A stretch of 64,000 bases of DNA, taken from the IMG/VR virus record IMGVR_UViG_3300025015_000001. The stretch is one strand, 5' to 3'. The stretch comes from a virus. Under the pieces are notes generated by a model. The model was given only the letters and a program-made list of their open reading frames with translations, did no database searches and was not told the DNA's origin. Both the position numbers and the translations under genes were made by a program. Below are positions 46,945 through 63,815 of the stretch, piece after piece. Position 1 is the stretch's first letter. Each line of letters starts with the position of its first letter.

Positions 46945-47249
46945 TGGAATGGGGAGATTGTAAAGAGTGTCCTAAGTTTGTTTGTGATTCTGGTATTTAT
47001 AACAGAACAAAGGAAATTTTTACACGAGGTAACATACTAAAAACTCCAGAGGTCTCTATCAGACCTATCTGTTTACTTAAAGACCATTTTAGAATCGATT
47101 ATTGGTTTATATCTAAAACAGACAGAGAGCAAAAATTTAATTCTCTACAAGAAGCTCTGATTTATTTAGTAGAAAACGTAGAACTATCCTTTGAAAACTT
47201 ACTATATTATACTAAAATTAAGAATGAGATAAATGAATATAATAGTTAA
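46941..47249 (+). CDS. member of the LTK-motif paralog family
   Basis: EALIYLVENVELSFENLLYYTKIKN. Confidence 0.6.
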   Translation: MMEWGDCKECPKFVCDSGIYNRTKEIFTRGNILKTPEVSIRPICLLKDHFRIDYWFISKTDREQKFNSLQEALIYLVENVELSFENLLYYTKIKNEINEYNS

Positions 47250-48774
47250 CCCAATCTACTCAGAAATAGATGGGGTATTTCCCTCCTCACTAAAAGAGCA
47301 TTTATCATTTTTCTCACCGGGCTATAAATTTAGCCCTAAGTATAAAGGGTTATGTATAGCAAATAGAAAATGTGATAGTTTATTATGTAATTGCATATTT
47401 TATTCTACCTGTGTAGATAAAATAATTAGGTATAAAAATAAAAAAAAGATAACATTATGTAAAGATACCAAATCGTGTAAGCATCAAGTACGAAGATGTA
47501 ATTCTAAAGATGAATGCAAATACAGAAAGAGACAATGGGACGGAAAGATATCCTTATTAACCAAAAATAAATTTCCAACAGGATTACTTTCAAAAGTAAA
47601 GCAGTTTTTTGATCTAAATAATATAAAATATATAATAGAGGATAATAGATCATTTGCTAAGAAAGACACATTTAAACTATCAGAAGATTTTACAGCATGG
47701 GAACATCAGACAAAAGCTCTTAAGATTGGTATAGAAAAAAAGAACGGTATCTTCTCAGTAGCAACATCTGGGGGAAAGACTAATATTGCTGCAATGATAA
47801 TTGCTGATATAGGGCAGCCTACCATATTTTTAACACATCTAAAAGGACTTCTACACCAGACAAAAGAAAGATTTGAGAATTTATTAAATTGCGAGGTTGG
47901 TATTGTTGGTGACAATAAATTTAATGTAAAGCCTATTACAGTTGCTAGTATACAAACTATAATTAGTCATATAGAATCAGAAAAAGATTTAGAATGGCTT
48001 AAACAATTTAAAGTAATGATATGTGACGAAGTTCACCATCTCTCTAGTAATACTTGGGTTAACGTATGCAGACGTTTAGATGCCCCCTATAGATTTGGAT
48101 TAAGCGGGACGGTAGACTTATCAGATAATGGCATGCTATTGGAAGCGTATACTGGCCCTATCTTATATAGTATTAATTTAGATTATCTTGAGAAAAACAA
48201 ACACATATCACCATTCTCAGTTAAAATTATAAATATAGACAAACCTAAAGTATTTAAACAGAATTATAAAGATGTATATGATATCGGTATTATTAATAAT
48301 ACTTATAGAAATGAACAGATTGTAAAATTAGCAAAACTATACTATAAAAAAGATAAACCAACTTTAATATTGTTTCGTTACATAAAACATGGTATACTAT
48401 TATGTAGTATGTTGAAGAAGATGAAGCTTCGGCACGAGTTCATCTATCAGAATACTAAAACAGAGGAGCGTATAAGAATTAAAAATGATGTAGAAAATGG
48501 TAACTGTAAAATTTTAGTAGCATCATCTGTATTTGATGAGGGGGAAAATTTACCATCTGTTAGTGTTTTAGTATTGGCCGGAGGAGAAAAAGGAGGCTTA
48601 TCTGGGCGTAGATTACTTCAAAGAATAGGAAGGGTGCTTAGACTAGCAGAAGGCAAGACAGAAGCCATTATATTTGATTTTAGTGATAATATACATAAGT
48701 ATCTCAAAGACCACTCAGATCAGAGGTTGCGGGTGTATAAAGATAACAAAATTAAGTGGAAGGTTTTGGAATGA
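47233..48774 (+). CDS. superfamily 2 (UvsW-like) DNA helicase with a Cys-rich N-terminal insertion
   Basis: VATSGGKT, ICDEVH, LSGT, QRIGRVLR. Confidence 0.9.
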   Translation: MNIIVNPIYSEIDGVFPSSLKEHLSFFSPGYKFSPKYKGLCIANRKCDSLLCNCIFYSTCVDKIIRYKNKKKITLCKDTKSCKHQVRRCNSKDECKYRKRQWDGKISLLTKNKFPTGLLSKVKQFFDLNNIKYIIEDNRSFAKKDTFKLSEDFTAWEHQTKALKIGIEKKNGIFSVATSGGKTNIAAMIIADIGQPTIFLTHLKGLLHQTKERFENLLNCEVGIVGDNKFNVKPITVASIQTIISHIESEKDLEWLKQFKVMICDEVHHLSSNTWVNVCRRLDAPYRFGLSGTVDLSDNGMLLEAYTGPILYSINLDYLEKNKHISPFSVKIINIDKPKVFKQNYKDVYDIGIINNTYRNEQIVKLAKLYYKKDKPTLILFRYIKHGILLCSMLKKMKLRHEFIYQNTKTEERIRIKNDVENGNCKILVASSVFDEGENLPSVSVLVLAGGEKGGLSGRRLLQRIGRVLRLAEGKTEAIIFDFSDNIHKYLKDHSDQRLRVYKDNKIKWKVLE

Positions 48775-49004
48775 ATAAGTATGTTTTATTTCATACCGGG
48801 AGGTATGAAATAACCGAGCATAGTCGAGCTTTACTAGATAGTAAATATGTCACTTACTATAAAGTAAGAGATAAGTGGTATAATTGGGTAAATGAGTACT
48901 TTAACATATACGAAGCCATCGATTATTTATTCGATTGCCCTATGTCTCTTGAGGATGTTATACAACTTACTAAATTAAAAATTCATTATGATAATAATAG
49001 ATGA
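48756..49004 (+). CDS. member of the LTK-motif paralog family
   Basis: EAIDYLFDCPMSLEDVIQLTKLK. Confidence 0.6.
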   Translation: MEGFGMNKYVLFHTGRYEITEHSRALLDSKYVTYYKVRDKWYNWVNEYFNIYEAIDYLFDCPMSLEDVIQLTKLKIHYDNNR

Positions 49005-49203
49005 TGGTAAGTATAGATTATATTCTTTCCGCGAAGAACTAAAATTTGTAGATTTTTCTACAGTTTTATTAGGAAGGGAGCATAGTATGTATTTTAAGAC
49101 ACCAGAAGACGGTGTAGACTACTTATTAACGTGTAGTGATTTATCTTTAGAAAGTACCCTTAAACTAACCAAAATTAAAAATGAAGGATTCCAAAATGAA
49201 TAG
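48988..49203 (+). CDS. member of the LTK-motif paralog family
   Basis: DGVDYLLTCSDLSLESTLKLTKIKN. Confidence 0.6.
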   Translation: MIIIDDGKYRLYSFREELKFVDFSTVLLGREHSMYFKTPEDGVDYLLTCSDLSLESTLKLTKIKNEGFQNE

Positions 49204-49294
49204 GTTTATATAGAGTTTCATGGATGGTATTTAGATAAAAAAGAAATGGTATTATAAACAAATATAAATTTTTATGAAAATCCTGATTTATTAA

Positions 49295-50236
49295 ATGAAT
49301 AATTACATAATTAACATACAACAGAAATATAAAACAAAATTAGTATCATCTGATAATATTGGTATTAATTGCCCATGTTGTGTAGATAGTGGTCACACCA
49401 CTGATACCGGCTATAACCTATGGGTAAGTATATCAAAGCCAGTGTATCATTGCTGGAGATGTGGTGCCGCTGGTAGAATTAATAAGTTATTAAAATTATT
49501 AGGAATTTCTGTAGAAGACGAGGTACTATACGAAGATTCAGACTATGATTTAGATATTAACCTATACGATGAATTAAGTAAAATAAAAAAAATTAAAAAT
49601 ATTGAGTTACCACAAGATTATATACCACTTCATAGGGGTACTACGTCAATTACGGGTAAACAAGTTTTAGATTACTTATTAAATAGAAATATATCATACG
49701 ACAAAATAGAAAGATACAGATTAGGATTTTGTGTATCTGGCTATTATAGTGGTAGAATAATCATTCCGGTATACGATTATAAAAATGAATTAATATTTTT
49801 TGTGGCCCGTAGCTATTTTGCTAATGTTGATAAGAAAATATTAAATCCATCTAAAGAGTTAACTGGAACAGGAAAATCAGAGATATTATTTAATATAAAC
49901 AATAATATAAACAAAGACGAAGTAATTGTGAATGAAGGACCATTTGATGCTATGTCCACTGATGGTGTAGCTTTATTTGGAAAGATTGCATCTGATGAGC
50001 AGATACATAAAATTAAAAAGTTAAAAGCTAATAGTATAATTATAATGCTAGACAGTGATGCTACTAAATATGCATACGAATTAGCGGATAAGTTATATGG
50101 ATACAAAAAAGTTTATATCTGTGAATTAGTAGAAGGTGATCCTAACACGAATATAGATAAACTAGGCGAAATACTAAAAAACAAGAAGGAGTATAATAAA
50201 ATTAGTGGGTTACTAAATAAGCTAAGAATATGTTAA
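49295..50236 (+). CDS. DNA primase (zinc finger plus Toprim)
   Basis: CPCC...YHCWRC; RIIIP; VNEGPFDA; LDSD. Confidence 0.88.
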   Translation: MNNYIINIQQKYKTKLVSSDNIGINCPCCVDSGHTTDTGYNLWVSISKPVYHCWRCGAAGRINKLLKLLGISVEDEVLYEDSDYDLDINLYDELSKIKKIKNIELPQDYIPLHRGTTSITGKQVLDYLLNRNISYDKIERYRLGFCVSGYYSGRIIIPVYDYKNELIFFVARSYFANVDKKILNPSKELTGTGKSEILFNINNNINKDEVIVNEGPFDAMSTDGVALFGKIASDEQIHKIKKLKANSIIIMLDSDATKYAYELADKLYGYKKVYICELVEGDPNTNIDKLGEILKNKKEYNKISGLLNKLRIC

Positions 50237-52581: not shown

Positions 52582-52998
52582 ATGGAAAATACTAAGCTAA
52601 CATATCTCAAAGATAAGTCAATAGCAGTTAAGAATGGCCACAAAGTATCTAATGAACTTGATGACTTTTTTATGTGGTGCGCAGCTAATAAGCTTACATT
52701 TAGACATGCGTATATGGAGGATATAGACAATAGGATTGTTTTATCTATGGGGGGGACTTCGATTACATATTTTACCATACCCGAAGAAATAATTCCTACC
52801 AAAGAAGATTTTTTATCGAATAAATCAGCCGCAATTAAAAAAATTAGGGATTACATATTTTCTAAAGCTCAGGCTGTAGAATATGCATACGAATCTTATG
52901 CCAAAGATGGCTCCTATCATACAACAGCTTATGTGGAGTTTAGGCAAGCAGATAAAGATATTGAAAAATATTTAGATAATAAGTATAAAGGAGAATAA
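52582..52998 (+). CDS. hypothetical protein
   Basis: GAGG SD. Confidence 0.7.
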   Translation: MENTKLTYLKDKSIAVKNGHKVSNELDDFFMWCAANKLTFRHAYMEDIDNRIVLSMGGTSITYFTIPEEIIPTKEDFLSNKSAAIKKIRDYIFSKAQAVEYAYESYAKDGSYHTTAYVEFRQADKDIEKYLDNKYKGE

Positions 52999-54023: not shown

Positions 54024-55421
54024 ATGATAAATAAAAAATCTTTATTTGATAGAGTAGCAGAAAGTCTTATTACAAAAAAATCTGGCACTGGCATATCTAT
54101 AGAAAAAACAGCAGAAGACAAAACTGAACGTAAGAATAAATTCAAAGGTTTAGATGATTATGAAAAAATGATACTAGCAATATGCAATACACCAAGAACT
54201 GATTCACATATCAAGCAGTTTTTCAAATCACGTAATGAGCAAGGTCAGACTATTAATTTTGATAGCAAGATACAGAAGCTTACAAAAGAGGGCTATTTAG
54301 ATCATGGTTATAATAAGTATGTAGTAAATCCTAAATTTAGAGAATTTATAACAGTTATACCTATGACAGCCTCTAAAAAGGAAGCAATGAATTACGAAGT
54401 AAACACACCAGAGGATTATATAAGCAAAGCAGTTGCATACGGTTTAGATGACCCCACTATAATAAATAAATTATCAGATAGTTATGGGATAGAGCATAAC
54501 CAAGCATATAACATGCTTCAGGATGCTAAGTCAGGTAAAACAAGTTATACAGATACATCAAGGGGTGATTTAGGTGGCGGATTAATAGATAGAACCGAAA
54601 GGGAGGAATACAGAGAGTCTATTATCGCGACCAAGTCTTTTAAGTTGAGTGTCGAAGAAAAGGTGGCTATAGTAGAGGTAGAGGCGGCACGTTATGAATG
54701 GAACGGTTCGGATTTAGTAAACTATGAAACTCAGGAAAAGGTAGATGTTAGTTCTCTAAAATTAAATGACAAAATATTAGATAATCCAGATACAGAAGAA
54801 AATTCATTTTTAGATAGAGCAGTATTTATGCTACCATCACATCTTTATATAGATGAAGTTGGTTATCATAAAGATTTAGCTGCACCTATTCTAATGGTTT
54901 ATAAAGAATCTAGCAGAGAAGCTAAAAATCTAAAACAAAAGAAAGCTAACAAAACTGCAGCATCTTTTGTTAACACAATCGGGAGTAGCAATTATAAGCT
55001 TAACCCAAATAATGTTTCTCAACGGGCAGTTACATTTGCACGTAAATTTTTATCAAATTATAGATTCCCATTAGCACCAACTATTAAATTTAATGCTATG
55101 AAAAATGCATCCACAAGTAATAATATGCTAAATGGGGAAGTACATTTGACATTGGGATTCAAGACACTATCAAATGTGCACAAGTATATTGATATATCAA
55201 TGCCTATTAAAGAGGGTAGTTTCATAGAGCCCTCCACTATGACTGTAGATGGCAAATCTTATATCATATCCCAATCCGCAATAGACGATCTAACCAAAAG
55301 TGGGACATTTTACACCACAGTTAATCCCAGGGCATCTTCCCAGCCGATGGACAGGAAAATTTTGGATACATTCAAAGATAGAGTCGTTCCTAAAATAAAA
55401 AGAAATTTGTTTTCAATCTGA
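54024..55421 (+). CDS. hypothetical protein
   Basis: 465-aa ORF. Confidence 0.75.
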   Translation: MINKKSLFDRVAESLITKKSGTGISIEKTAEDKTERKNKFKGLDDYEKMILAICNTPRTDSHIKQFFKSRNEQGQTINFDSKIQKLTKEGYLDHGYNKYVVNPKFREFITVIPMTASKKEAMNYEVNTPEDYISKAVAYGLDDPTIINKLSDSYGIEHNQAYNMLQDAKSGKTSYTDTSRGDLGGGLIDRTEREEYRESIIATKSFKLSVEEKVAIVEVEAARYEWNGSDLVNYETQEKVDVSSLKLNDKILDNPDTEENSFLDRAVFMLPSHLYIDEVGYHKDLAAPILMVYKESSREAKNLKQKKANKTAASFVNTIGSSNYKLNPNNVSQRAVTFARKFLSNYRFPLAPTIKFNAMKNASTSNNMLNGEVHLTLGFKTLSNVHKYIDISMPIKEGSFIEPSTMTVDGKSYIISQSAIDDLTKSGTFYTTVNPRASSQPMDRKILDTFKDRVVPKIKRNLFSI

Positions 55422-55474
55422 GAGTTGTAATTGTGGGGTAAAAAATAAAACAGTATTTTGATAAAAATGATGAT

Positions 55475-58400
55475 TTGGTCTTATTGTTAGATAAGTACAA
55501 GGAACAACTAGATTTTAAATCAAAAAATTATGAGGAGATAGAGGCTTTTGTTGGTGATAAGCCTCTTGTCGTTTCAACTAAAATAGATGGGATTTTGCAT
55601 ATAGCAAAATATCTTGATGGTAAGACTTACCTTGCTACTCGCGAGGGGCGTATTACAGAAGAACTACCTGTATTGACTGAGATTTCTAAGATGTTAAATG
55701 ATAAACAAGAAACAATTTTATTTGGTGAATTGTATGGTATAGATGCTGACGGTAGAGAACTACCGTTAAATGAGACAATATCAATCACAAGAAAACCAAA
55801 ATCACCAGAAGATGAGCATAGAATTAAATTTGGCATATTTGATATTTATAAATATGATGGAAAATTAGTAGAGGAGAACGACTACTGGAAGAGATTGCTG
55901 TTAGTACAAGAATTATTTGAAGACGGTAAGTATGTTCATCCTGTATATGCAAAAAATGAAGACGGATCTTCTGCTATTAAAAAAATGTGGGAAGAGGAAG
56001 TTTTAAGAGAAGGGCACGAAGGTGTAGTTTTACATATAGAAGGTAATACTATTAAGATTAAGCCTACCAAAACTATAGATTGTTTAGTTATTGCGGTTAA
56101 GCCTAATTTAGAAAAAGGCTTTGCTAGTTCTTTATTTTTAGCATTGATGGATAAGGACGGCATATTCAGAAGTACTTCATTTGTTGGTACAGGATTGACA
56201 GACGAAGACAGAGTGGAGTGGTTAAATTATGCAAACGAAAATAAAGCCCTAGCTCCTAATCATGATGAGCTTTTATGGATTGATATAAATAAAAATCCAA
56301 GAATTGTAGAAGTAGACTATGAACGCCCTATTGTAAAAGAAACAGAAAGTTTTAAATTCATTAATGGCGAATGGGGACAATTAGAAGAAGAAAGATTAGC
56401 TGCTACACTAATCAAACCCAGATTTATTAGATTACGCGAGGATAAAAAAGTAACAGAGACCGATCTCAGACTTATTCAGATTCCTGATTTAGAAAAAGAA
56501 TTGACTAAAAAAAGTTTTAAAATAAATGCTGATCTTAAATCTTATGATGATTGGTTTTTGTCAGAGTATGGTGAACTACCTAAGTATGAGTATGTGTATA
56601 TGCAAAGATTTTACGAAGGTCAGCCACTAGATATAGCATTCAATGATACAAAAATACATTCTACTAGATTAGATAGATTTGATTTTAATTTAAATAAGTA
56701 CTCCGATAGAATTACTAACTTGTCTCAATTAATTGCTGACATGGATAAAGTTAAGGCTATAGGGTATGATAAGATAAGTATTATCAAGCCATCTGGAGAA
56801 ATAAAATTATTTGATAAAAAATCATTTAAACTAGAAGCTTATTACCCAAATCACCCTAATACAGTAATTTTTTCTAAAGGAGAATTTTTAAGATATGATC
56901 TTAGAGAAAAAGATGTGTGGGAATTTTATGATAAAGTAAAAGACAAAATATTACAACAAACTCGCGGTAAGAATGTTTTATTATATCTCAGAGTTAATGG
57001 TGATATATTAAAACGTAAACATGATGGTATAGTCAAGGTAGATAATTATAATGATTTTAACCGTATTAATAATGGTAGAATGATTGAGATACACTCTGAA
57101 ATATGTCAAGAAAAAAGGGATACTTGTCTTACTGATATTATTTTTTGTGATGTAGACCCCAAAGAAAATTTCCCTTGGAAAGATACAAAAGAAATAACTA
57201 AAAAGATATATAATATTTTTAACAAGGACTCCAATGTAAAGCATGTAAAAATCCACTATAGCGGGAACAGAGGATTCCACTGTATAGCAAAACTTAGGGA
57301 ATTATGGGAAGTTGATAGAGCAAGAGAGTATACAAAACGCTTGCTTAAATCATTAGAATCTGATAAAATAAAGTTGGGTATAGTGCGAGAAAATGATATG
57401 TTACGTTTAGATACCACTTTATTAAAAAGACGAGGCTCTTTGCGCACAGCGTATTCTTTAAATAAGACCACAGGATTAGTAGCAGTTCCTGTGGATATTA
57501 AATCTTTAGACACTTTTGAAAAGAAAGATGCTACTATAAAAAAAGTTTTAGAGAAGTTGAGTGCAAGTAAAAAATCATTTAAAATTAATGCCGAAGATAT
57601 TATATATGGTCCTTGGGCTATATATGATGATATAGTAGATGCCGCTACTGGAGATATTACTCACATAGAATGGTTTACCAATATAGGATTTCCAGTATCC
57701 CCAAATATTTTTGATAAGATTACCAGAGGTTCGTACATTATAAGAGATGGTATACTTAATATAATGATTTATCCTGAAGCTGGGTATGTAGAAGAAGCCC
57801 TAGATAAATCAAATAGGTTAATGGATAAGATAGGTTATCATGATAAGTATAAAGAAGTTAGGTTTTTTAAAAGCCATAAAATTGGAATCAACAGGATAGC
57901 TAAAAAATCATTTAAAATAAATTCTTCTATATTAGATTATCCTAAGCCTGGATTAGAACCTAAAGTATGGAATTTTGATGGTACCATAAATGAGAATGTA
58001 AAATCACAAATACTCAATAAACTTAACAAATTTATAGAATCGCAAGGATATAGTGCTAAAGAAATTATAACTAAAATTTATGTAGTGGGAAGTTTAACTT
58101 CATACCAGTATAATAGAAATACAGATTTGGACGTTCACTGTTATTTGAATCTCCAAAATATGTTAGGAATATTTCAGGGCAATGAAGCCGACCTCATAGA
58201 ATTAATAGATAAAAGTTGGCGTAAGACATTAAATAAAGCCGAATCAGAGACTATAGAAGGAACGCAGCACCCATTAGAGTTCTATTTTGAAATACCAGAA
58301 GATTTATCCGTAGCACCTTCAGATGGTGTTTACGATTTATTAAATAATACTTGGATAAAAGAACCTAAAGTTATTACTGTGGATTTTGATATAGAGAAAA

Positions 58401-59110
58401 TATATCCTGAAATTATTAATAGAGCTAAAGAGATTGCAAAAGAATTAGACATTCAAATAGGTGAATTAAAACGAGATGTCACAGATGCAGAGATGATTCA
58501 GGATTTGATTGACTACTTATCCGAAGAACAAAAAGGGTTATTTGTAGAGAAGTTAAATACCAAGATAGAAGAAATAGATAATAATATTGTAGATTTACTT
58601 AAAGTAGAGCAAAGTATTAGTGATAAGCGCCACGAAGATTATGCTTGGGATAGTGAAGGAAATATTTTATTTAAATTTTTACAAAGATTCGGCTATGTCG
58701 GGTTGTTAAAATCTATTGAAAAAGCTATAGGCAATGATAAAAAATTTGATACGGATGACATAGAAAATACTCAAAAAGTACTAAACCCAATTAAGAGTTT
58801 TAGATTATATGCAGGATTCTACGATCCCAACAGCCCGATTTTACTCAATCCAGAAGGCGGAGGAGAAGGCAGGCATAGACTTGTAGATCCTAAAGCCTTT
58901 GATAAAGACTCATTTAGGCGCTGGTCAGAGTGGGCTGGAGTAAAAGCCCCAGCTGGGATTACATTCTTAGTCGGAGATTTAATTAAAGAAAAAAATAAAG
59001 CTCTTCAGGCCATACGTTTTGATACTAATATAATATCTGAAAAGGAAGCAGAAAAATTTTGGAATAAAGTAAAAAATAAAAAAGGTTTTGAAAAAACTTG
59101 GAAATGGTAG
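55475..59110 (+). CDS. multidomain protein: ATP-dependent DNA ligase, LigD-like primase-polymerase domain and Pol-beta nucleotidyltransferase
   Basis: STKIDG, LFGE, EGVV ligase motifs; FCDVDP, YSGNRGFH, LRTAYSLN AEP motifs; VVGSLTSY..TDLDVH NTase motif. Confidence 0.85.
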   Translation: MVLLLDKYKEQLDFKSKNYEEIEAFVGDKPLVVSTKIDGILHIAKYLDGKTYLATREGRITEELPVLTEISKMLNDKQETILFGELYGIDADGRELPLNETISITRKPKSPEDEHRIKFGIFDIYKYDGKLVEENDYWKRLLLVQELFEDGKYVHPVYAKNEDGSSAIKKMWEEEVLREGHEGVVLHIEGNTIKIKPTKTIDCLVIAVKPNLEKGFASSLFLALMDKDGIFRSTSFVGTGLTDEDRVEWLNYANENKALAPNHDELLWIDINKNPRIVEVDYERPIVKETESFKFINGEWGQLEEERLAATLIKPRFIRLREDKKVTETDLRLIQIPDLEKELTKKSFKINADLKSYDDWFLSEYGELPKYEYVYMQRFYEGQPLDIAFNDTKIHSTRLDRFDFNLNKYSDRITNLSQLIADMDKVKAIGYDKISIIKPSGEIKLFDKKSFKLEAYYPNHPNTVIFSKGEFLRYDLREKDVWEFYDKVKDKILQQTRGKNVLLYLRVNGDILKRKHDGIVKVDNYNDFNRINNGRMIEIHSEICQEKRDTCLTDIIFCDVDPKENFPWKDTKEITKKIYNIFNKDSNVKHVKIHYSGNRGFHCIAKLRELWEVDRAREYTKRLLKSLESDKIKLGIVRENDMLRLDTTLLKRRGSLRTAYSLNKTTGLVAVPVDIKSLDTFEKKDATIKKVLEKLSASKKSFKINAEDIIYGPWAIYDDIVDAATGDITHIEWFTNIGFPVSPNIFDKITRGSYIIRDGILNIMIYPEAGYVEEALDKSNRLMDKIGYHDKYKEVRFFKSHKIGINRIAKKSFKINSSILDYPKPGLEPKVWNFDGTINENVKSQILNKLNKFIESQGYSAKEIITKIYVVGSLTSYQYNRNTDLDVHCYLNLQNMLGIFQGNEADLIELIDKSWRKTLNKAESETIEGTQHPLEFYFEIPEDLSVAPSDGVYDLLNNTWIKEPKVITVDFDIEKIYPEIINRAKEIAKELDIQIGELKRDVTDAEMIQDLIDYLSEEQKGLFVEKLNTKIEEIDNNIVDLLKVEQSISDKRHEDYAWDSEGNILFKFLQRFGYVGLLKSIEKAIGNDKKFDTDDIENTQKVLNPIKSFRLYAGFYDPNSPILLNPEGGGEGRHRLVDPKAFDKDSFRRWSEWAGVKAPAGITFLVGDLIKEKNKALQAIRFDTNIISEKEAEKFWNKVKNKKGFEKTWKW

Positions 59111-60548: not shown

Positions 60549-63500
60549 ATGGCACGTCCTAAAAAAGATTCTCCCACAGTAGACATGCGGTCAAATATAT
60601 CATTAGATGATATTGGTTCTGAGATATCAGGATTATTTGATAAGCATATTATTGGCGGAGAAAAAATTGATTGGAATAAAGATAGCGTAGGCGAATCTAC
60701 ACAAGCAGTAGACAAATATGCTATAGACTTTTCCATACAAGCTCCTAATATTATAGAATGGAGCACTAGTGAGAAGTTCTTAAATCAACCATCTTTGTTT
60801 GATTATAAAAGACAGTATCAAACAATACGAGATTTGTTTCAATTAAGATGCCCATTATGCAATAAATTAGATAGACAGTCTATAGATTGTTGGGATAAAG
60901 GAAGAGAATATTTAGAATCAGAGAATTTATTAGCATGGTCCCCAAAGCACCATGACGATGTTTGCCCATCTTGCAATACTACAAGAAGAGAATTTGAAAC
61001 AGATGGTATCTTTAAACGTTATAATACTTTTGTGGCATGCGTTGGTATGCGTTCTGGTAAAAGTGTCATGGCAGGGGCTTATTTAGGCACCTACATAGAA
61101 CATTTAATAATAACATTAGGTAACCCCTCATCTTACTTTGATGTTTTTCCTGGGCAGCCATTTGAGGTGGCATTTACAGCAACCACAGAGGTTCAATCGG
61201 AAGGAACCATTTATGCATATTTTAGAGCGGCACGAGAACAGTCCCCTTGGATACAAGCTTATATAGAACATTTGAAACAGGAAGAAACAAGAAGAGGGTT
61301 ATTTAAGCAAACACTATATAACGAAACAAATAAAACCATATATTACAAAGAACTAAATACAGAATTCAATTCCTTGCATTGCTTTACCAAAGGTACACAA
61401 ATTTTATTAAGCAACTACACATATAAGAATATAGAAGACATACAGATTGGTGATCAAGTACTAGATAGAAAAGGCTACACACAAAAAGTAGAGAGTGTTT
61501 GGTGTGAGGGCGCACCCAAAGAAATTTTAGAAATAACAGTTTATGGTGGTACTAAATTTAAATGTACCAATAACCATAGATTTCCAGCATATGTGTGGCC
61601 CAAGAAATGTTACTGTGGATGTGGGGCTGAGCTCGATACAGGGCGCTCTTTTATAAAGGGGCATCAAGGTAATGGTAGAAAATTTAAGATGCGTATAGCA
61701 GAGGGTAGCGGAGGGCACGTAAGAAGACTTCCTCTGGAATATAACCCACTACAAGACGTTATAGCGGAAGATCTCGGTGTAAACGATTACTTATTTATGC
61801 CTAGAAAATTTGAAGAGATCAAGACAGACGTCTCCCCAGAGCAAGCTAGATTATTAGGTTATTACATCGCCGAGGGCTGTAGTAATAGAACTACGTACAA
61901 ATCTGGCTATAAAAGGTTGGGATCGGAGTTCACATTCCATAAAGATGAACTACATACATGGGTTAAAGATATATACTATATTTGTGATAAATATAAAATT
62001 CACTACAATACATATTTAAGAAAAGACGCTAAGGCGTGTGTAACTTTTACATCTGGAAAAAATGCAATTGAGACAGCAGAATGGTTGGAGACAAACGGCG
62101 GCGTCTTTTCAAAAACAAAGAAACTCTCTGAGGATGTGATGAGATGGCCATTAAATCTTAAAATGGAACTTATCAGAGGGCTATTTAGGGGTGATGGTAC
62201 TCATCATTTAAAAAAACAAAGATGCCCTAATATCACATATAACACGGCTTCAAAAATCTTAGCTCAACAGGTACAAATGATTTTATGCCAACTAGGTTAT
62301 TATTCTGGAATTGTAGAGCATAAATATAGAATTACTAAATTTAATAAGAATGGTAAATCTATTGGCTACTATGTTAATATGGGGGGTAATCAAACATTTA
62401 AGTTAGCCGAAGAAATCTGGGGCGCGAATAATAAATTTATTGATGTAAAAATAAGCCCTATTAAAAATTTATGTAAAGTAGACGACGATTATATTTACTT
62501 CCCAATTAAAAGTATTAAAAAGATAATTAATTCTGATCCTGTATATAATCTAACAGTTTCAAATGACCACTCTTATATAGTAGGTAATATAGGTACCTAT
62601 AATTCCAATTCCGGAGGGCTAGCTGGTAGAACACGTGTTTGGGCCGTAGTAGACGAGCTAAGCAGATTTGAAACTTCAGTAGGAGAAAGTCGTAGGGGGG
62701 CAAAAGAAGTTTATAATGTTATTGATAATGGTTTAGCTACTGTAAGAGGAGAAACCGATAGAAGACAATTGCCATATATTTTTGGAATGATGAACGCAGT
62801 AAGTTCACCCATTCATAACAATGATATGACAATGAAACTTCTTAAGACTGCTAAAAAAGATAAAAATGTTTTTGCTGTACATTACCCTACTTGGAAATTT
62901 AATCCTAAGATTACAAGAGAAAGTTTAGAATCAAGATTTCAGAGAGACCCTATTGGAGCAGAGAGAGACTTTGGCGCAAATCCACCCAATGCAGAAATGC
63001 CTCTTATTACAGATGAAGAACGTTTTAGAAAATGTATTAATCCAAATCTAAAACCAAAAGCAACATTTGAAGACACTACTCCTGTGGATGGTATGGGGAG
63101 AATGTATGCAGGTAAAATACTAAAGCATGCTGATTTTGATAGATTAACATCATATTATATAGCTGGTGACGCAGGTAAATCCAAGGATAGTTTTGCTTTA
63201 GCTTGCGGTCATGGTGAGTATAAAGATGTTCACACGCCAAACGGAATAGAAAAGAAATGGTGCACCATAATGGATTGGTGCGTTACGATAAGACCATCTG
63301 TCAAACCACGTAAAACTATTTATTATGATTGTATTGTAGACATATTAAATAGAATTAAGCAAAGACAAAAAATACAATCAGTTGCATTTGACCATTGGCA
63401 ATCAGAAAGTATTTTACAAGATCTAAGCAACATGCAAATCGAGACAGCAACATATAATGTCAAAGCTGAAGATTATATGAGATTTGTTATAGATGCGTAT

Positions 63501-63815
63501 GAAAGTAAAGTTCAGTTAATACCCCCTGTAGCTGAAGATGAATATCTAGACCCGTACGCACCAGTTAAAGGTATGTCAGATTATGGAAGACTTGTGCATG
63601 AATTATTAAATTTAGAAAGAAGTGCAGATTTAAAGACAGTCGATCACAGATCAAATGAGCATAATGACTGCGCTGCAGTGGCTGTAATGGTGCACAAGAA
63701 TGTACAAGAACAGGTATCCACTACAGGCAAGTCTAAGAATTTTAAAAATGCAATGAGTGTAGCAGTACAAAGTGGGCTAATGCCAACCTCAGCTAGAGTA
63801 GGATTCTGGCGATAG
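60549..63815 (+). CDS. terL: terminase large subunit containing an intein
   Basis: Walker A GMRSGKS, Walker B VVDE, nuclease AGDAG...D and FDHWQS; CPLC/CPSC zinc insertion. Confidence 0.88.
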   Translation: MARPKKDSPTVDMRSNISLDDIGSEISGLFDKHIIGGEKIDWNKDSVGESTQAVDKYAIDFSIQAPNIIEWSTSEKFLNQPSLFDYKRQYQTIRDLFQLRCPLCNKLDRQSIDCWDKGREYLESENLLAWSPKHHDDVCPSCNTTRREFETDGIFKRYNTFVACVGMRSGKSVMAGAYLGTYIEHLIITLGNPSSYFDVFPGQPFEVAFTATTEVQSEGTIYAYFRAAREQSPWIQAYIEHLKQEETRRGLFKQTLYNETNKTIYYKELNTEFNSLHCFTKGTQILLSNYTYKNIEDIQIGDQVLDRKGYTQKVESVWCEGAPKEILEITVYGGTKFKCTNNHRFPAYVWPKKCYCGCGAELDTGRSFIKGHQGNGRKFKMRIAEGSGGHVRRLPLEYNPLQDVIAEDLGVNDYLFMPRKFEEIKTDVSPEQARLLGYYIAEGCSNRTTYKSGYKRLGSEFTFHKDELHTWVKDIYYICDKYKIHYNTYLRKDAKACVTFTSGKNAIETAEWLETNGGVFSKTKKLSEDVMRWPLNLKMELIRGLFRGDGTHHLKKQRCPNITYNTASKILAQQVQMILCQLGYYSGIVEHKYRITKFNKNGKSIGYYVNMGGNQTFKLAEEIWGANNKFIDVKISPIKNLCKVDDDYIYFPIKSIKKIINSDPVYNLTVSNDHSYIVGNIGTYNSNSGGLAGRTRVWAVVDELSRFETSVGESRRGAKEVYNVIDNGLATVRGETDRRQLPYIFGMMNAVSSPIHNNDMTMKLLKTAKKDKNVFAVHYPTWKFNPKITRESLESRFQRDPIGAERDFGANPPNAEMPLITDEERFRKCINPNLKPKATFEDTTPVDGMGRMYAGKILKHADFDRLTSYYIAGDAGKSKDSFALACGHGEYKDVHTPNGIEKKWCTIMDWCVTIRPSVKPRKTIYYDCIVDILNRIKQRQKIQSVAFDHWQSESILQDLSNMQIETATYNVKAEDYMRFVIDAYESKVQLIPPVAEDEYLDPYAPVKGMSDYGRLVHELLNLERSADLKTVDHRSNEHNDCAAVAVMVHKNVQEQVSTTGKSKNFKNAMSVAVQSGLMPTSARVGFWR
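61380..62603 (+). mobile_element. LAGLIDADG intein in terL (408 aa)
   Basis: SLH|CFTKGT...IGTYN|SNSGG; LLGYYIAEG and IRGLFRGDG. Confidence 0.9.

Follow-up and report, generated by a model that had tools for sequence, protein, structure and literature searches.

A ligase, primase-polymerase and nucleotidyltransferase polyprotein with a repeated eight-residue linker in an uncultured phage, and its possible role as head cargo

Why should a phage join a DNA ligase, a primase-polymerase and a nucleotidyltransferase (NTase) in one chain and repeat the same short peptide between them? The question is raised by a gene in the 64,000-nucleotide stretch analyzed here (the window) of IMG/VR virus record IMGVR_UViG_3300025015_000001, a complete virus genome of 194,269 bp with direct terminal repeats and 34% GC. 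The frame at 55475-59110, on the plus strand, stays open through 1211 amino acid residues (aa), and its translation confirms that the product (P0001, the polyprotein) has the six modules described in a first-pass annotation, which had proposed a virion-packaged, protease-processed end-joining kit. Our reading, held with moderate confidence, is that the polyprotein would be head cargo of the polyvalent-protein kind and that its linkers would be sites of the capsid protease with the form [ILV]-x-[AS]^, where the caret marks a cut, predicted in the phage and mapped in herpesviruses.

Linkers and modules of the polyprotein

The linker consensus in the polyprotein is K-K-S-F-K-[ILV]-x-[AS], eight residues long, and its five copies, all on the plus strand, stand between the six modules: linker 1, KKSFKINA (aa 345, 56507-56530); linker 2, KKSFKLEA (aa 448, 56816-56839); linker 3, KKSFKINA (aa 699, 57569-57592); linker 4, KKSFKINS (aa 810, 57902-57925), which directly abuts the conserved NTase N-terminus SILDYP; and linker 5, IKSFRLYA (58790-58813), whose KSFRLYA part begins at aa 1107 (58793). 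All five lie exactly where they had been placed by the first-pass annotation. They were recognized from the sequence and by a position-specific scoring matrix (PSSM), linker 5 also with an AF2 model. The matrix was built solely from linkers of the ligase family and run on the whole proteome with a threshold of 12 bits; it scores the five linkers at 20-24 bits, and shuffled proteomes yield roughly 0.5 hits that reach 12 bits. The codons of the linkers vary, Ser being encoded by AGT in two and TCA in three, Ile by ATA or ATT and Ala by GCT or GCC; therefore, selection acts on the linker peptide and not on a DNA repeat. We considered a repeat at the DNA level, or frameshifting at a slippery A-run (AAAAAA), and rejected both, as linker 5 is without an A-run, Ser is encoded differently between linkers, and conservation affects F, [ILV] and [AS] rather than the bases.

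The ligase, the polymerase and the end domain are retained in seven homologues (811-1649 aa), whose cassettes are gained or lost exactly at the linkers; in P0003-P0008, one linker is left at each joint after the insertion or deletion of a cassette. P0007 lacks module 2 and P0004 lacks module 4, P0003 shows two additional cassettes, one of them with an HExxH motif, and P0006 carries a 105-aa cassette in three copies as well as a cREC domain. In P0008, nothing lies between the polymerase and the end domain except five tandem empty linkers (aa 677-715: KKSFRLVA, HKSFRLVI, RKSFRLVI, PKRFSIQL and KSFKIKG), which may be the scar of a cassette loss or a product of linker slippage. Furthermore, clustering of the cassettes shows that module 2 and the 105-aa cassette (the two shared cassettes, E and F) are common to the ligase family and to a second polyprotein family, formed by P0009 and an 860-aa protein of the same phage (p860); NUDIX and GNAT domains occur in this second family. 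When IMG/VR was scanned with the polyprotein and the portal protein as queries, no relatives were found, and the scan of a single metagenome gave two short related contigs and one distant ligase, nothing else.

Module 1 (aa 1-344, 55475-56506, +) is an ATP-dependent DNA ligase with an adenylation and an OB domain, according to Pfam, PDB, NCBIfam and invariant columns. The ligase motifs KIDG, EGVVL, IKIKP and RLREDK are present and conserved among homologues, Pfam DNA_ligase_A_M (PF01068) matches aa 22-186 at 2.9e-11 and NCBIfam TIGR02779 matches at 1.2e-9. The match of the OB domain is weak; the domain carries motif VI, and the PDB matches of the module are archaeal DNA ligases. Module 3 (aa 456-698, 56840-57568, +) is, by the same four kinds of evidence, an AEP or LigD-type primase-polymerase (prim-pol), with Pfam LigD_Prim-Pol (PF21686) at aa 514-699 (5.2e-13, 49.6 bits against a cut-off of 27.4) and with DVD (D559, D561), SGNRGFH (S596-H602) and RLD (D646) invariant in the homologues.

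The best named NCBIfam models for the ligase and polymerase domains are LigD models (ligD_pol for the polymerase), far below the equivalog cut-offs; the LigD equivalog TIGR02776 reaches 61.5 bits on P0001 against a cut-off of 373. No 3'-phosphoesterase domain was matched by Pfam or NCBIfam on the whole of P0001 or on its small modules, and Ku (PF02735) was not found in the complete 194-kb genome. Some LigD proteins have no 3'-phosphoesterase domain, hence its absence is not decisive. Since the phage has no Ku and the protein no phosphoesterase domain, P0001 is judged, from its sequence, to be LigD-like in parts and not a LigD system. The end-joining kit of the first-pass annotation thus keeps the best scores of its ligase and polymerase against LigD models, and is weakened by the distance of these scores from the cut-offs and by the two missing components. 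Searches of PHROGs and of PDB sequences with the whole protein gave no matches.

Module 5 (aa 818-1105, 57926-58789, +) is a Pol-beta-superfamily NTase core (GS-x10-DLD) followed by a helical bundle, as indicated by its homologues, AF2 and Foldseek. The Pfam match is weak (NTP_transf_2, E 0.046); 1267 homologues show near-invariant S, D-x-D and H, the AF2 model has a pLDDT above 90, and the nearest Atlas clusters also back the NTase identity. When the model was compared with solved structures using Foldseek and VIA-align, only generic NTase-fold (LinB, ANT and CD-NTases) or helical-bundle matches were obtained, and the comparison with BFVD matched uncharacterised phage proteins. On these comparisons the putative NTase falls in a phage-only family and could be placed in no NTase subfamily.

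The remaining modules are small. Module 2 (56531-56815, +) is an unnamed 95-aa cassette, found also in P0009, and module 4 (57593-57901, +) is an unnamed 103-aa cassette that is missing from P0008 as well as from P0004. Module 6 (58814-59107, +) is a 98-aa end domain (DPNS...RLxDP...FRRW...) defined by homologue alignment, which closes every ligase polyprotein and is internal in other giant polyproteins. None of the three belongs to a named family in Pfam, NCBIfam or Atlas, and all three are independent units.

As regards the beginning of the gene, the frame itself stands and the start can be placed only to within a few codons: the copy in the sequence collection begins three codons downstream, and the homologue P0005 begins ten codons earlier. 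The codon of P0001 that matches the P0005 start is an ATA behind a GGGG box; the box (window 55433-55447), 8 nt before ATA 55445, aligns with the ATG start of P0005 (MKQFFSKEDD...). Besides 55475, the alternative starts are TTG 55484 and ATA 55445, and translation may begin at the rare ATA codon, or the original start may have been lost and TTG 55475 or 55484 be used.

The capsid protease and the linker in the head-gene block

The KKSFK-type linker recurs beside the portal gene, with four copies in the 860-aa protein and one in a 225-aa protein encoded directly upstream of the portal. At 12 bits, the PSSM gives six hits outside P0001 against 0.5 expected, and four of them fall in these two proteins against 0.1 expected in the head block. 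The linker also stands as an N-terminal leader, since the first residues are MKKSFNLNS in the 860-aa protein and MIKSFKINA in P0009; as a pattern only, this position resembles the cleavable leaders of the T4 type.

A 1099-aa protein encoded between the portal and major capsid genes (G000:C1:20272-23571, -) matches, in its N-terminal 233 residues, a PHROG head maturation protease (phrog_18299) at 1.2e-39. The top PDB matches of its AF2 model (pLDDT 81) are herpesvirus assemblins and T4 gp21, with Foldseek probabilities of 0.98-1.0, and the putative catalytic residues S167 and H113 are invariant in 49 homologues. Because of the PHROG match, the assemblin-like model and these two invariant residues, the protein is predicted to be a protease-scaffold fusion like herpes UL26. 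Several of its homologues also contain inteins.

The final strand of the protease fold is followed immediately by V-L-G-I-N-A^K (I240-N241-A242). At the same junction, close protease homologues have LGLQA, MDISA and MKIKA^S, with the general form EV-[LMI]-x-[ILA]-x-A, and the [ILV]-x-A of this junction is the core of the linkers FKINA and FKLQA. Of 120 capsid-protein homologues, 118 have G-x-[ILV]-N-A where a variable N-terminus (10-122 aa) gives way to the conserved body, and Basic-x-A motifs are four times denser in the variable N-terminus than in the body. Furthermore, sequences similar to the MKKxAS leaders of the NTase family stand at the N-termini of protease homologues (MSFFKTAK, MFKKYASV) and capsid proteins (NPYRKTAK). 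A Prp-type protease, which acts on the L27 leader, was considered for the short leaders and rejected, as the genome has no Prp gene and the motif differs.

The NTase cassette is also found under other linker codes. It opens with S-[IV]-L-D-Y-P nearly everywhere, preceded by Ala or Ser; MKKxA precedes it when the cassette stands alone or heads a giant protein (1000-3973 aa), and the lineage's own linker precedes it when it is internal. Because the cassette start follows leaders and internal linkers alike, the scissile bond likely lies after the final Ala or Ser of the linker. In P0198 (3263 aa), for instance, the cassette lies between LFNKKA^ and LSMRKTS^, and the KSFK linker is present in only 4 of 148 NTase homologues. 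As indicative counts, the giant NTase-led proteins contain 56 copies of K-[KRQT]-x-[AS]-[SN] where 17.6 would be expected, and three giant head proteins of mycobacteriophage Catera, which has a protease of the same family, contain 12 copies of [KR]TA[GA] where 0.66 would be expected, with none in 13 other proteins. The three, encoded on L008 (NC_008207.1 30602-47450), are gp87, gp93 and gp94 (protease-scaffold), one copy standing directly after the protease domain, and [KR]TA[GA] is a candidate cut-site code of cluster C mycobacteriophages. Virus Rctr197k, the nearest GenBank phage by terL, encodes a 2176-aa polyprotein between terL and portal in which [KR]TA occurs seven times against 1.6 expected, again as an indicative count.

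Some further observations concern these relatives. The RNA ligase gene of Catera (gp92) lies inside its head block. The Rctr197k protein (L006 16140-22667 = KX853510.1 46139-52666) has two HExxH motifs and is annotated as a misc_feature, 'similar to hypothetical protein'. The huge-phage match LR756502 was set aside, being a stand-alone NTase in an uninformative context.

The polyprotein gene lies two genes upstream of terL, as the first-pass annotation stated, the large terminase being encoded at 60549-63815 (+) with a LAGLIDADG intein. Pfam Intein_splicing, Hom_end_hint and LAGLIDADG_3 match this intein, and the homologous terL of contig L004 (681 aa) is without it; the synteny of the polyprotein gene with terL is retained on that contig. 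Past the window, the gene order is terL, an HNH gene, a ParB-like gene, a gene for a 604-aa protein, the genes of the 860-aa polyprotein and the 225-aa protein, portal, a TnpB-like gene, the protease-scaffold gene, three small genes and the major capsid gene; portal, protease-scaffold and capsid genes lie within about 25 kb of the polyprotein gene and on the same strand. The gene between portal and protease-scaffold is TnpB/Cas12f-like (Cas12f1-like_TNB, 7e-18; L001 9628-10458, -, = G000:C1:23897-24727). Near its C-terminal region, at about aa 590, the portal protein (L001 10803-13031, -) has a weak linker-like KRGFKVTA^ND after a Pro/Ala-rich stretch, and the C-terminal 150 aa might be removed or be a separate module.

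Upstream of the polyprotein, a 465-aa protein (54024-55421, +) has TKSFKLSV, a single weak site resembling the linker, and IEKTA near its N-terminus. A 138-aa ORF (window 52582-52998) shares the segment DKSIA-KNGHKV-NE-DDF-MWC-ANK with a 219-aa ORF (G000:C1:19610-20269) between the protease-scaffold and capsid genes; because the two are paralogous, the upstream unknown genes are tied to the head block. The statement that the polyprotein gene is away from the replication genes did not hold, as a UvsW-like helicase (47233-48774) and a DnaG-type primase (49295-50236), the replicative set of 47233-50236 (+), lie 5-8 kb upstream in the same strand block.

Proposed route and alternative explanations

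If the polyprotein is head cargo, the C-terminal [ILV]-x-[AS] of the linker would copy the recognition site of the phage's own assemblin-fold maturation protease, and the basic and aromatic K-K-S-F-K part may also aid recognition or targeting. The polyprotein would enter the procapsid, the protease would cut after the linker Ala or Ser and free the enzymes within the head, and the freed enzymes would leave with the DNA at infection. The least certain step is what follows: most likely, the freed ligase, prim-pol and NTase would seal, fill or join the ends or breaks of the incoming genome before phage gene expression. The phage also encodes a separate stand-alone ATP-dependent DNA ligase (377-aa frame, G000:C1:131898-132446, +) and an RNA ligase (G000:C1:138537-139040, +), both far from the head block. 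Since it has a stand-alone ligase and a DnaG primase, the ligase and prim-pol of the polyprotein form an additional set, which fits a special role.

Protease-processed head cargo, as first proposed from the translation, is the best-supported reading: the linkers stand at the exact module borders, they recur beside the portal gene, and their core is found at the protease and capsid junctions. The evidence for it is indirect throughout, and several observations weigh against it. Neither the capsid protein nor the scaffold part nor the portal contains the full KKSFK linker; they have only the short [ILV]-N-A or weaker variants, and the full KSFK linker is found in 0 of 61 protease-scaffold homologues. 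Only a three-residue core is shared, with about 40 chance occurrences expected in the proteome, as estimated from amino acid frequencies, and in the capsid protein [ILV]NA could be structural instead of a cut site. The motifs of Catera, Rctr197k and the giant NTase-led proteins were picked by eye before testing, and their statistics are indicative only. The polyprotein gene stands where the replication block meets the head block, outside the portal-to-capsid core, and AF2 confidence is low for linker 5 and the end domain. Finally, the genome has a ClpP-like gene elsewhere (G000:C1:142251-142772, -).

In a wider form of the head-cargo reading, a lineage-specific peptide of an 'address and scissors' kind would load any cassette into the capsid, and the capsid protease would release it there, throughout a large clade of uncultured phages; in this phage, the load would be a Ku-independent end-joining and gap-filling set (ligase, LigD-type polymerase and NTase), injected to seal or circularise the genome or to mend nuclease cuts before phage gene expression. 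We put this forward tentatively, as a possibility that we doubt more than we believe.

The alternative that survives best is in our estimate unlikely. It takes the polyprotein for an uncut 140-kDa multi-enzyme with flexible or partner-binding joints, active in cytoplasmic LigD-like repair or in replication restart and not as capsid cargo. Bacterial LigD acts as an uncut multidomain protein, and the nearby helicase and primase genes, together with the missing full linker in capsid and scaffold proteins, would suit such a role. However, flexible joints need no 8-residue sequence conserved despite differing codons, the same peptide serves as N-terminal leader in p860 and P0009 and remains as empty tandem copies in P0008, it is common to the proteins beside the portal gene, and a stand-alone ligase and primase are already present in the phage.

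Still less likely, the chain would be cut and packaged as proposed and the content would be an RNA-repair or anti-defence kit, in which host-ribonuclease cuts in tRNA or mRNA are repaired by the ligase and the NTase (with cREC in relatives) and replication is jump-started by the prim-pol. In P0006, the ligase domain also passes Pfam RNA_ligase (34.5 bits), and a cREC_REC domain (7.8e-24) suggests cyclic-phosphate processing; furthermore, the sister polyprotein family has NUDIX and GNAT domains and the same genome has an RNA ligase elsewhere. In P0001 itself, however, the ligase is best matched by DNA ligases and includes an OB domain with motif VI, and the polymerase scores best against ligD_pol.

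Least probable of the three, the chain would be cut outside the head by another protease (of the host, ClpP-like, or a zincin cassette) and its enzymes freed in the cytoplasm, as with the polyproteins of eukaryotic viruses; the ClpP-like gene, the HExxH cassette of P0003 and the zincin peptidases that Iyer et al. 2017 (PMC5512222) proposed as processors of polyvalent proteins speak for this, whereas the lack of a peptidase cassette in P0001 in Pfam searches, the lack of site specificity in ClpP, the lack of a Prp-type protease in the genome and the coincidence of the [ILV]-N-A core with the domain end of the protease and the capsid-protein junction speak against it.

Comparison with known systems

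Polyvalent proteins (Iyer, Burroughs, Anand, de Souza, Aravind 2017, PMC5512222) carry many unrelated effector domains and have the portal and terminase genes as neighbours; it is predicted that they are packaged with the DNA and delivered along with it. The peptidases proposed as their processors are embedded in the chain, and the word 'linker' is not in the text. They combine two to fifteen unrelated effector domains in variable architectures, as P0001 combines six cassettes, the domain types PrimPol, Pol-beta NTase, NUDIX and GNAT are shared, and the P0001 gene likewise lies in a late neighbourhood with terminase and portal. In contrast, P0001 has no zincin peptidase and no MuF or portal anchor (HExxH is found only in its relative P0003), a conserved 8-residue joint resembling a capsid-protease site bounds every cassette, and the cargo is a pair of DNA ligase and LigD-type polymerase. 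Polyvalent proteins and protease-processed head cargo are already known (PMC5512222; PMC5694885; PMC10052503). In the literature, no paper was found on cassette chains joined by a conserved linker that resembles a cut site.

If the linkers are real cut sites, the enzyme cargo of phage heads would be far more diverse than in T4, phiKZ and N4, with cassettes recombining at a shared joint, and the specificity of a capsid protease would be readable from genome sequence alone. With an assemblin-like [ILV]-x-A^, phage and herpesvirus proteases would be linked through their sites and not only through their folds. With a virion-borne set of ligase and polymerase, a phage would have a novel means of protecting or circularising its DNA on entry, possibly as a counter to restriction or CRISPR breaks, and the linker could be used for loading foreign proteins into capsids.

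In phage T4, gp21 is an assemblin-fold protease that cuts capsid, scaffold and internal proteins (IPI-III, Alt) at a short motif, and short N-terminal, capsid-targeting leaders end in the cut site. The proteases of T4 (gp21), phiKZ and SPN3US cut after Glu (L/I-x-E; S/A/G-x-E), whereas the P1 residue predicted here is Ala or Ser; their substrates lose a propeptide or yield few pieces, whereas the chain cut here would consist of six exchangeable enzyme cassettes. The ejection proteins of phiKZ and SPN3US are head proteins processed by the prohead protease (PMC5694885, PMC10052503, PMC9026906). Herpesvirus assemblin sites are of the V/L-x-A^S type, with a release site YLQA-T and a maturation site VQA-S in PrV (PMC4498786). 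The phage protein resembles herpes UL26 in being a predicted protease-scaffold fusion with an [ILV]-x-A-type site directly after the protease domain; however, the relation is at the level of the fold only, with 10-16% identity, and the phage site is predicted, whereas the herpes R- and M-sites are mapped.

Like bacterial LigD, P0001 unites an ATP-dependent ligase with an AEP polymerase, and there is phage precedent for end joining at genome entry. It differs from LigD in the order, ligase then polymerase with inserted cassettes, in the extra NTase, in the absence of a phosphoesterase domain and in the absence of Ku from the phage. Work by Pitcher et al. in 2006 reportedly described mycobacteriophages Omega and Corndog as encoding Ku and circularising with the LigD of the host; these phages borrow the host enzyme, whereas here the enzymes would come with the virion. 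Set beside these systems, the case contributes a cargo of ligase, LigD-type polymerase and NTase, a predicted site of the assemblin kind with Ala or Ser at P1, cassette exchange between two polyproteins of one phage, and one cassette under two linker codes.

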